A stretch of 12,346 nucleotides of DNA. Origin: Candidatus Edwardsbacteria bacterium (lineage in GTDB: Bacteria > Edwardsbacteria > AC1 > JBFLXN01). This document shows, one piece after another, positions 11,444 to 12,072 of the stretch (the stretch's first letter is position 1; every line of letters begins with the position of its first letter). Made by a program: the position numbers and the translations under genes. Under the pieces are notes generated by a model. The model saw only the letters and a program-made list of their open reading frames with translations, had not been told where the DNA came from and did not search any database. The DNA lies in contig JBFLXN010000014.1 in assembly GCA_040755715.1 (NCBI GenBank), positions 1 through 12,346 of the forward strand, in the 5' to 3' direction.

Positions 11444-11728
11444 TCACCTCCTCTCCTCTTTGTATTTCCTGATTGCCTCTAATCTTTCCAGGATTTTTCC
11501 TTCTTTCTTTTTATATTCCTCTTCGTTCACCTCGCCCATCTCAAAGCGCATCTGAAGTTCTAGCAACTCTTCCTGCACTTTAGACTCATCGGTCACCTCA
11601 GTCTCGGCTGTCTCCTTTAGTTTATTTCCGATCCATACCACCCCCTTTATAGGCAACAAAAAAGGCAATAAAATATCGGTTAATCCAAAACCCGATCCTT
11701 TAGAACCACTCTCAGGCTTTTCCTTCAC
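11444..11728 (-). CDS. gvpG: Gas vesicle protein GvpG
   Basis: LLPIKGVVWIGNKLKE...EELLELQMRFEMGEVNEEEYKKKEGKILERLEAIRK is the classic GvpG sequence. GTG start (11728..11726) forms a GTGA overlap with the stop of the GIY-YIG gene. The RBS AGGAAAGGAAGGG lies within the upstream gene's 3' end. Confidence 0.85.
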   Translation of the reverse strand: MKEKPESGSKGSGFGLTDILLPFLLPIKGVVWIGNKLKETAETEVTDESKVQEELLELQMRFEMGEVNEEEYKKKEGKILERLEAIRKYKEERR

Positions 11729-11780
11729 CCCGCCCTTCCTTTCCTTGCAATGCCAAGTCTAGATTTTAATCTTGCCAAAC
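11714..11780. repeat. Direct repeat copy 1 (gvpG leader/RBS/start); partner at 11995..12072
   Basis: aggcttttccttcaccccgcccttcctttccttgcaatgccaagtctagattttaatcttgccaaac aligns at about 80% identity with aggcttttt[aggaagggcggggt]tcaccctgcccttccttttctcgcaatgccaagcctatattcaatttggctaaac. Confidence 0.7.
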
Positions 11781-12021
11781 CACTTCCGAACTTCTTCAAG
11801 CTTTTTTCCCTTTCAAATGCCACATCTTTAGATCTATAGGCCTCAAAATATATTAACTCCACTGGTAACATCTTTCTAGTTGAATATATCTTTCCTTGCT
11901 TATGCTCCATTAACCTTTTTTTCAAGTTATTCGTACATCCTATATAAATCCAGTCTTTAACTTTACTACTGAGTAAATATATATAATGCCAATTAGGCTT
12001 TTTAGGAAGGGCGGGGTTCAC
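11725..12021 (-). CDS. Small stand-alone GIY-YIG nuclease family protein (YhbQ/UPF0213-like, 98 aa)
   Basis: WHYIYLLSS (GIY), DWIYIGCTNNLKKRLMEHKQGK (YIG plus the conserved Arg), ELIYFEAY (catalytic Glu) and the REKSLKKF terminal helix. It starts at a GTG (12021..12019) that lies in a duplicated copy of the gvpG leader. Confidence 0.8.
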   Translation of the reverse strand: MNPALPKKPNWHYIYLLSSKVKDWIYIGCTNNLKKRLMEHKQGKIYSTRKMLPVELIYFEAYRSKDVAFEREKSLKKFGSGLARLKSRLGIARKGRAG

Positions 12022-12072
12022 CCTGCCCTTCCTTTTCTCGCAATGCCAAGCCTATATTCAATTTGGCTAAAC
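11995..12072. repeat. Direct repeat copy 2 (provides RBS, GTG start and first codons of the GIY-YIG gene), carrying an extra 14-16 bp GC-rich insert that creates a hairpin (12004..12033)
   Basis: See copy 1. The insert aggaagggcggggt is the reverse complement of accccgcccttcct in the repeat. Together they form arms aggaagggc (12004..12012) and gcccttcct (12025..12033). Confidence 0.7.

Follow-up and report, generated by a model that had tools for sequence, protein, structure and literature searches.

The gvpF-gvpG junction in the stretch of DNA analyzed here, 12,346 nt of contig JBFLXN010000014.1 from a Candidatus Edwardsbacteria genome (the whole stretch is referred to as the window), carries a small gene for a GIY-YIG nuclease. 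Comparison of this junction with related loci indicates that a miniature mobile element, the only product of which is the GIY-YIG protein, has probably inserted here twice in tandem; for this model as a whole, including mobility driven by the nuclease, we estimate a probability of roughly 0.7. The element family is widespread and apparently undescribed. A preliminary description of the locus had noticed a repeat on both sides of the nuclease gene and had interpreted it as a duplicated gvpG leader, left by an insertion of the homing-endonuclease or duplicative type that preserved the expression of both genes; its observation is partly confirmed and its interpretation partly supported.

Two tandem units at the gvpF-gvpG junction

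At its two ends, the GIY-YIG open reading frame (ORF) has motifs that are inverted repeats of each other at 14 of 14 positions (11727-11740 and 12004-12017), a relation that the preliminary description does not mention. Within them lie the 13-nt terminal inverted repeats (TIRs) of the intact element, CCCCGCCCTTCCT (12004-12016) and AGGAAGGGCGGGG (11728-11740), which enclose and partly encode the ORF. The end of gvpF (12157-12176) holds an identical third copy, likewise unmentioned there, of TGAACCCCGCCCTTCCTAAA, the 20-mer found at the start of the ORF, and the 14-mer AGGAAGGGCGGGGT has 8 matches in the window at no more than 3 mismatches, compared with 1.2 expected, a count that none of 200 shuffled sequences reached. 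Read in gene sense, with each unit in parentheses, the junction is ...GGAGAAAGTTA-TGAA-(CCCCGCCCTTCCT ... AGGAAGGGCAGGG)-TGAA-(CCCCGCCCTTCCT ... GIY-YIG ... AGGAAGGGCGGGG)-TGAA-GGAAAAGCC.... The minus strand is the coding strand for every gene of the window, and the features are the following.

12158..12346, minus strand: 3' end of gvpF/L (gvpF), last 62 codons (Pfam PF06386, E=6.9e-11)
12173..12177, minus strand: ATGAA, read from the sequence as the ancestral gvpG start with the left TGAA copy (12173-12176)
12021..12172, minus strand: degraded element copy, 152 nt including a nested insertion (5' 20 nt identical to the intact copy; translation in three frames)
12131..12156, no strand assigned: 26-nt mini-palindrome CCCAGCCCTTGCGCGCAAGGGCTGGG nested in the degraded copy (hairpin, -24.1 kcal/mol, z=-4.6)
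12017..12020, minus strand: middle TGAA copy between the two elements, straddled by the GIY-YIG GTG start (12019-12021)
12004..12033, no strand assigned: junction hairpin, made by pairing between the degraded copy's right repeat and the intact copy's left repeat
11728..12016, minus strand: intact element, 289 nt (perfect 14-nt inverted repeat, Pfam GIY-YIG match, same termini in 18/18 relatives, codon test)
11725-12021, minus strand: GIY-YIG ORF, 98 amino acids (Pfam PF01541, E=3.7e-14)
11724..11727, minus strand: right TGAA copy, of which TGA (11725-11727) is the GIY-YIG stop, and G11728 plus TG is the gvpG GTG
11444-11728, minus strand: gvpG, 94 amino acids (Pfam PF05120, E=6.8e-24)
4819..4844, no strand assigned: sister 26-nt mini-palindrome, in frame in the GvpJ-like gene (4599-5672, minus strand), adding 10 residues

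The 136 nt between the gvpF stop and the GIY-YIG ORF hold no long ORF. The degraded copy keeps its left repeat CCCCGCCCTTCCT (12160-12172) and its right repeat AGGAAGGGCAGGG (12021-12033), and retains the first codons (MNPALPK) and the last ~30 codons (..RLGIARKGRAG*) of a diverged GIY-YIG gene, the middle of which has been lost. The repeat of about 80% identity reported in the preliminary description does exist, as a 42-nt direct repeat (11724-11765 and 12017-12058, 88% identity, spacing 293 nt) within ~92 nt of retained 3' end, and alignment of the two copies, a check proposed there, gave ~74% identity over ~92 columns. It is not a gvpG leader, however: judged from the sequence, it represents the GIY-YIG gene's 3' end, present twice through two tandem copies, one of them decayed. 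Nor does it include the first gvpG codons, as had been stated, since homology ends exactly at GTGAA, beyond which the copies continue as AGGAAAAGC and CCCCGCC.

The hairpin at 12004..12033 is likewise real (-23.7 kcal/mol, z=-4.8; RNA fold, matched by 0 of 200 shuffles), but its attribution to an extra insert of 14-16 bp does not hold: it is formed because the right end of one unit abuts the left end of the next. The GIY-YIG GTG start is located in or beside the loop of this hairpin and the AGGAAGG motif, which resembles a Shine-Dalgarno (SD) sequence, in its stem. The whole 500-nt region folds, as RNA, with its outermost ends paired (z=-4.6).

Both neighboring genes have been altered. The last five codons of gvpF (EPRPS) and its TAA stop (12158-12160) now come from element DNA, and the gvpG GTG start is now supplied by the right end of the intact element, the AGGAAGG motif of which sits 8-12 nt 5' of this GTG. 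The overlap of the GIY-YIG stop with the gvpG start, described earlier as GTGA, is present in the sequence. Together with the SD-like motif it constitutes an architecture that is compatible with the claimed preservation of expression of both genes. A promoter and terminator scan of 11200-12346 gave only chance-level results on the gene strand, and the element apparently brings neither a promoter nor a terminator with it. Logan contig SRR29635779_1043 (11.6 kb; L001:1-13, where L with a number denotes a locus in our collection), an independent assembly of the locus, ends at ...|TGAAGGAAAAGCC, that is, at the element boundary, which is consistent with the repeat breaking the assembly.

The uninterrupted gvpF-gvpG site

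A metagenome scan with GvpG identified 45 related loci. The nuclease gene is absent from gvp clusters in which GvpG is 76-86% identical to that of the window, and in these, L082 (86%), L084 (85%), L088 and L090, gvpF runs directly into gvpG, so that the preliminary description was right to regard the gene as an insertion. The orthologous gvpF genes end in ...EGKRDEKT*, overlapping gvpG, and the gvpG orthologues begin with ATG or GTG followed by AAR, at the same codon as gvpG of the window. At the position of ATGAA, L082 reads ...GGGAAAAAGAGATGAAAAGACC...; the architecture predicted for an insertion-free junction is found in these clusters (...GGGAAAAAGAGATGAAAAGACCTGATGA... in L082), the predicted empty junction being GGAGAAAGTTATGAAGGAAAAGCCTGAG. 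When the two units are taken out of the window along with all but one of the three TGAA copies, the result is GAAGGAGAAAGTTATGAAGGAAAAGCCTGA, a restored junction in which gvpG has an ATG with GGAG 6 nt upstream and gvpF overlaps it, ending 11 nt later. The repeated terminus (the AGGAAGGGCGGGGTGA leader) is missing from the insertion-free junctions. Because these close orthologous junctions lack both the gene and the terminus, the GIY-YIG gene is a lineage-specific insertion, and the supposed leader, contrary to the earlier account, is not native to gvpG. In the insertion-free orthologues L084 (~1460-1475) and L088 (~395-410), gvpG begins with GTGAAG, not ATGAAG.

A second, unrelated mini-element (CCCTTCGAC...GTCGAGGG, ~60 nt) lies exactly on the gvpG start in L083:2920-2990 and in L087 (~2830-2900). 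It is flanked by the duplications ATGG and ATGA, brings its own AAGGAG and ATG, and has an uninterrupted counterpart site in L090 (~840). Mini-elements that target start codons may be general in these lineages.

The same termini in unrelated operons

More than 150 relatives of the GIY-YIG ORF were found at 55-89% identity, mostly named from metagenome-assembled genomes (MAGs) of Omnitrophota and some from MAGs of Planctomycetota, Cloacimonadota or the candidate phyla radiation (CPR); an exact-protein look-up of the window ORF itself returned no record. Among the relatives, the N-terminal MNPALP and the C-terminal KGRAG are nearly invariant. Anatomy and insertion polarity are evident at 18 unique loci, all of which have the same DNA termini, ATGA-ACCCCGCCCTTCCT ... 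AGGAAGGGCGGGG-TGAA (in a sub-family, ATGAG-TCCCGCCC.. ... ..GGGCGGGA-TGAG). In 18/18, the downstream host ORF (94-695 amino acids) begins at a G/ATG overlapping the TGA stop of the element, and in 12 of the 18 the stop of the upstream gene is the TGA of the ATGA at which the element starts. The nearest relatives occupy unrelated operons, namely mnhD/mnhE (88% amino acid identity), LMWPc/rpiB (82%), two glycosyltransferase genes (GT2/GT2, 82%), argD/argF and pilM/pilN, with 4-nt gene overlaps on both sides in every case. Because the same junctions recur in unrelated operons, we consider these loci to reflect a mobile element with a base-precise insertion logic. The repeated segment, described earlier as the 5' end of the target gene itself, thus consists of the same nucleotides in all 18 family members, in unrelated operons and in other genomes; it is effectively the generic cassette that the preliminary description had named as counting against its own reading.

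In relatives at a greater distance (CPR, Scalindua, DPANN and others), the ORF is bracketed by inverted repeats, 12 nt or longer and beginning CCCC(G/T)C(A/C)C, in 33/57 loci compared with 13/188 displaced controls, from which we conclude that the repeat-bracketed architecture is old and broad.

Several arrangements at these loci are described here for the record. Two full-length copies lie head to tail in L006:836-1400. In L002:2962-3294, a 35-nt end-fusion precedes a full copy, giving an N-terminally extended ORF, and in L014:3001-3348, two mini-palindromes are nested in the nuclease gene (IY-PAPHKKGG-IY-PRPSKMGG-IY). Candidatus Scalindua rubra has two related GIY-YIG elements on different contigs (L029 and L032; also L028), highly similar (~95% identical by eye over the element), in which homology opens at the left repeat (ACCCCTCAC) and extends at least 60 nt past the right repeat, so that the repeated unit may be longer. 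In the distant relatives L053:1475-2183, L043, L048, L050, L051 and L021, on contigs named from Planctomycetota and CPR MAGs, the GIY-YIG ORF is located within, or immediately next to, an RNase P RNA gene; in L053 it is in a helix loop (Rfam RF00010 positions ~126-147), the stem of the helix being the inverted repeat of the element. The relatives in L018, L026 and L059 adjoin tRNA genes. Scans of IMG/VR for the element end and for the mini-palindrome gave zero matches; carriage by phages is not indicated.

Mini-palindromes and target-site duplications

Derivatives that consist of little more than the ends, with the form CCCNGCCCTT..AAGGGCNGGG, provide evidence of target duplication. The nested and the sister mini-palindromes of the window are part of 28-nt perfect palindromes (12130-12157 and 4818-4845), neither of which appears in the preliminary description. 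In gene sense, the former is flanked by a TAAA direct repeat (12157-12160 and 12127-12130) and the latter by TGAA (4845-4848 and 4815-4818). The ten residues encoded by the palindrome at 4819-4844 are absent from 9/10 GvpJ-like orthologues (67-82% identity), and the empty site is preserved at the DNA level: L148 reads ...GATATA-TGAA-AATAGT..., compared with ...ATATA-TGAA-(26 nt)-TGAA-GG... in the window and in L150, a gap of exactly 30 nt. An insertion of the type CGAA-(26 nt)-CGAA adds EPRPFSKERG to the ArsA gene of L087, and ArsA of the window is without these residues; TTTA-(26 nt)-TTTA is found in the interior of the GIY-YIG gene of L014, and L002 contains a 35-nt end-to-end fusion with TGAA flanks. 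The lengths of all mini-inserts, 26+4 or 35+4 nt, are multiples of three, and in-frame inserts of the NPALARKGW type are also present in the homologous proteins P0107, P0025 and P0076.

Five distinct 4-bp duplications were thus recorded (TGAA, TGAG, TAAA, CGAA and TTTA), and their diversity, along with the exact empty site, argues for staggered target cleavage and against the view that TGAA simply belongs to the element. The alternative of 14-nt repeats and a duplication of just 2 bp (GA) was rejected because the copies flanked by CGAA and by TTTA can be fitted only with 13-nt repeats and 4 bp; a single-strand mechanism like that of IS200/IS605 was set aside as well, those elements making no target duplication. 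With TIRs, target-site duplications with matching empty sites, and non-autonomous derivatives, the family has several properties of transposable elements.

Another palindrome, GGGGACAGTCTCCTTCGGGGACAGTCCCC (9657-9685), is in frame in the ArsA-like gene (8931-10895), where it encodes IGGLSPKETVP, and has a near-identical match in the related cluster L083:5040-5066. Palindromes of this type may represent another family of in-frame palindromic insertions.

Selection on the ends and the core

Codons that fall within the repeats show no variation, synonymous sites included (CCC 18/18, GCC 18/18, CTT 14/14, CCT 15/15, GGA 17/17 and GCG 17/17). Invariant residues of the interior, by comparison, use 3-4 codons (G28, 6/4/4/3; T30, 4/5/6/3; P53, 4/7/1/6; A61, 5/4/3/4). 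The two arms covary, CCCCGCCCCTCCT with AGGAGGGGCGGGG in L014, and TCCCGCCCCTC with GAGGGGCGGGA in L012, L015 and L017, and repeats and protein have co-diverged into sub-families. For the core codons (11-89), the median ratio of nonsynonymous to synonymous divergence (dN/dS) is ~0.10, with dS ranging from 0.26 to saturation; because of this low ratio, we conclude that the nuclease is under purifying selection. As read from these alignments, the ends are constrained as DNA and the core as protein.

The GIY-YIG protein

The match of the ORF to PF01541 scores 53.2 bits (cut-off 22.6), and Y15 (at least 90%), Y26, G28, R36, H40 and E72 are invariant or nearly so across 30 sequences. AlphaFold predicts a confident GIY-YIG core spanning residues 11-89 (pLDDT 87-91 over residues 11-70; topology beta-beta-alpha-alpha-beta-alpha) and disordered tails, which are the segments encoded by the repeats. 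The protein is a single domain ending 9 residues past the core. Its only profile matches among solved structures are BH0048 (1zg2, E=1.6e-6) and EF2693 (1ywl, E=7.2e-5), and Foldseek ranks 1-10 are taken by Slx1, BH0048 and HIGLE, with I-TevI and the UvrC N-terminal domain lower. The NCBIfam models gave only sub-threshold matches, to intron endonucleases and UvrC; the score for the group I intron endonuclease model TIGR01453 is 21.3 bits, below its cut-off of 56.05. Sequence and modeled structure support a minimal stand-alone GIY-YIG nuclease of the Slx1/UPF0213 type rather than of the UvrC or homing type. A role as a defense system was considered and dropped, the PADLOC models having given only weak, sub-threshold matches. 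The label of homing-endonuclease type is not borne out either, considering the 98-residue length, the absence of a DNA-binding domain, the TIGR01453 score, and the presence of TIRs and 4-bp duplications.

The surrounding gvp cluster

The content of the gvp cluster is unusual and includes a DnaK-type Hsp70 (2836-4704), a duplicated ArsA-like ATPase, an Hsp20-like gene and small zinc-ribbon proteins, along with a GvpA with a C-terminal zinc ribbon (7469-7819) and a GvpJ fused to PH/GRAM-like domains and a zinc ribbon (4599-5672, 357 amino acids). A protein identical to this 357-residue GvpJ-like protein is named from a 'Candidatus Edwardsbacteria' MAG, whereas most of the GIY-YIG relatives are named from Omnitrophota MAGs.

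A model for insertion at start codons

The ancestral site would have been ...GAAGGAGAAAGTT-ATGAA-GGAAAAGCCTGA..., containing the gvpG ATG with GGAG upstream and overlapped by the gvpF end. The elements would integrate at the TGAA of ATGAA, duplicating the 4-bp target, such that the element ORF (96-98 amino acids), whose first and last codons are encoded by the repeats, would inherit the host ribosome-binding site and start codon. The right end, AGGAAGGGCGGGG-TGA-A, would then hand gvpG a new SD-like motif and a GTG overlapping the element TGA, and because the element end supplies both, the operon would not be interrupted. Since every insertion recreates R-TGAA, tandem arrays are expected, and such arrays are seen in the window, L002 and L006. 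The upstream copy in the window would later have lost its interior and gained the 26-nt palindrome, a fusion of two ends, with the TAAA duplication. The preference for TGAA in ATGAA might reflect target choice, or selection, given that only insertions at gene junctions spare both neighbors.

By analogy with related enzymes, we infer that the GIY-YIG protein would recognize the paired or hairpinned ends and cut there, mobilizing full elements and mini-palindromes alike; it is proposed as the cutter because it is the only ORF between these ends and has co-diverged with them. In the predicted fold the junction hairpin buries the GIY-YIG SD motif and start, and nuclease expression at this locus is therefore probably low. 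The gvpG gene would be translated by coupling to the element ORF, and folding models suggest that its translation probably depends on this coupling or on opening of the stem. Combining all these features, the family could represent a new class of prokaryotic DNA transposon, with a ~96-residue GIY-YIG nuclease as its sole protein, TIRs that double as end codons and as a portable SD motif and start, a 4-bp duplication preferring ATGA(A/G) start/stop overlaps, by which operons would remain translationally coupled, 26-nt in-frame derivatives, and sites in RNase P RNA helices in distant relatives; this joint reading is tentative, and we place it somewhat below even odds.

Comparison with known systems

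A literature search returned the paper on Ssn nucleases and no description of repeat-bounded GIY-YIG elements inserting at start codons. Ssn nucleases are associated with NTS/SRM hairpin repeats; they bind the hairpin repeat in single-stranded DNA and cut a few nucleotides upstream, and the authors of that paper likened NTS-ssnA-NTS to an insertion sequence (Chenal et al. 2025, PMC11893778). The two systems share a single-domain GIY-YIG protein of ~94-98 amino acids (98 here) without a DNA-binding domain, a gene bracketed by short GC-rich repeats capable of forming hairpins, and related short palindromes dispersed elsewhere. They differ in that each flank is here a half inverted repeat overlapping the end codons of the ORF, whereas Ssn genes have a complete hairpin in the intergenic flank, and in that base-precise insertion at start codons, 4-bp duplications and empty sites are found here and none are reported for Ssn. 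The Ssn-related motif HGTCWYN(0-2)YYVSBRHN(0-5)WNVSBRGN(0-2)RNCYNB had 0 regular-expression matches in the window, with the NTS positive control detected, and only 2 in 684 kb of loci, at the same site in L140 and L141, ~700 nt from the nuclease gene. Ssn is assigned to CDD family cd10448, and the protein described here is nearest in fold and sequence to Slx1/UPF0213. Strict Ssn membership is not supported, although the system may work like Ssn.

To the Slx1-like/UPF0213 proteins (BH0048 1zg2 and EF2693 1ywl), the nuclease is linked by its stand-alone minimal domain and by the best sequence and top fold matches. In the literature they are viewed as proteins of the repair type, passed on vertically and with unknown function (Dunin-Horkawicz et al. 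2006, PMC1564403); terminal repeats, target duplications and start-codon insertion are not described for them. The free-standing GIY-YIG homing endonuclease genes of T4-like phages (Seg family; PMC2988022) resemble the element in that a small nuclease gene is located between conserved operon genes, is expressed from host signals and is absent from close relatives. The Seg and I-TevI nucleases differ in having a C-terminal DNA-binding domain, no TIRs and no target duplication, and in spreading by double-strand-break repair between alleles.

In the REP/RAYT (REPIN) and IS200/IS605 systems, as in the present one, a single small nuclease or transposase gene is located between inverted palindromic repeats, and many short non-autonomous palindromes derive from the ends. 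Their enzyme is of the HUH-Y1 type, in contrast to GIY-YIG here, and IS200/IS605 elements produce no target duplication, in contrast to the 4 bp found here. In-frame MITEs (miniature transposable elements with inverted repeats), such as the Rickettsia palindromic elements, are similar in that some palindromes are in frame inside protein genes. Start-codon targeting with replacement of the SD motif and start is a known feature of none of these.

Alternative explanations

Several considerations weigh against the two-insertion model as a whole. End cutting by this nuclease is argued by analogy with the Ssn nucleases and with Slx1, a structure-specific nuclease that cuts branched DNA. To our knowledge, GIY-YIG enzymes are hydrolases without strand-transfer activity, and because they only hydrolyze, the joining step would be left to host repair or ligation. 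The full-length TGA is also needed as start overlap and stop, so the case for duplication is built mainly on the mini-palindromes. In exact-sequence look-ups each protein matched one genomic context only, and this, combined with the large synonymous divergence that marks the copies as old, means that recent intragenomic transposition is not demonstrated. Some copies have been inherited in place across related genomes (L012/L015 and L006/L009), and the copy count is limited to the window, with two full or partial copies and two mini-palindromes.

A related objection is that an unlinked transposase acting in trans, for example of the DDE type with its 4-bp duplications, moves the repeats, and that the GIY-YIG gene is cargo or an addiction or maintenance gene in a MITE-like shell. 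TIRs with 4-bp duplications are indeed classical for DDE transposition, the lack of known strand transfer by GIY-YIG nucleases points the same way, and the element contains no recognized transposase (DDE, HUH, or serine or tyrosine recombinase). We nonetheless consider this improbable: the GIY-YIG ORF is the only coding sequence ever found between the repeats (18/18 close and 33/57 distant loci), its ends are fused into them, both have diverged together, and ~680 kb of loci, in which no systematic search was made, showed no transposase gene whose ends match.

A domesticated host role is a live rival, albeit an unlikely one. Here, the protein would be an essentially immobile nuclease of the Ssn type, engaged in single-stranded DNA restriction or in control of recombination and transformation, the repeats would have spread by other means, and the siting at gene junctions would be incidental. 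The ~94-residue single-domain Ssn enzymes flanked by hairpin repeats have a host role in Neisseria (PMC11893778), and the strong purifying selection, the copies kept in place and the single context of each exact protein would all be accommodated. Against this explanation stand the close relatives in many unrelated operons, always at base-precise start-codon junctions, and the decayed, tandem and nested copies, of a kind typical for selfish elements; moreover, the Ssn-related motif is missing, and each side of the ORF has half of a repeat instead of a full hairpin.

The original proposal of a homing endonuclease gene that inserted duplicatively and copied the leader, ribosome-binding site, GTG and first codons of gvpG retains in its favor the absence of the gene from orthologous clusters, the 42 nt shared at 88%, and the precedent of free-standing GIY-YIG genes between conserved phage genes (PMC2988022). 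It is very hard to reconcile with the remaining evidence: the shared segment is a conserved terminus at unrelated loci in 18 relatives and is missing from insertion-free junctions, homology stops before any gvpG codon, the upstream copy represents the tail of another GIY-YIG ORF that has decayed, and the protein resembles no homing enzyme in domain content or TIGR01453 score. We know of no homing endonuclease genes with terminal inverted repeats and 4-bp target duplications.

Implications

If the GIY-YIG protein mobilizes these ends, it would represent a nuclease class new among the insertion-sequence families known to us, and the element, at 289 bp, would be among the smallest autonomous mobile elements known. 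The strategy would be selfish and near-harmless, in that the element settles on a start codon, makes use of the host ribosome-binding site and gives back an SD motif and a start that overlap its own stop. For genome analysis, such elements break assemblies, as in the Logan contig, and introduce spurious N-terminal extensions and 10-residue inserts into annotated proteins; they are also a possible source of the GC-rich palindromes that show up as insertions of 10 residues in the proteins of Omnitrophota and their relatives. Their end-specific nucleases could serve as reagents, as has been proposed for Ssn. Finally, the model suggests where the very large families of stand-alone GIY-YIG proteins (UPF0213/YhbQ-like and Ssn) come from and a function for them that can be tested, and if the reading as a transposon class is true, the UPF0213/Slx1-like and Ssn-like families, whose function is listed as unknown, may consist in large part of such elements or of their descendants.

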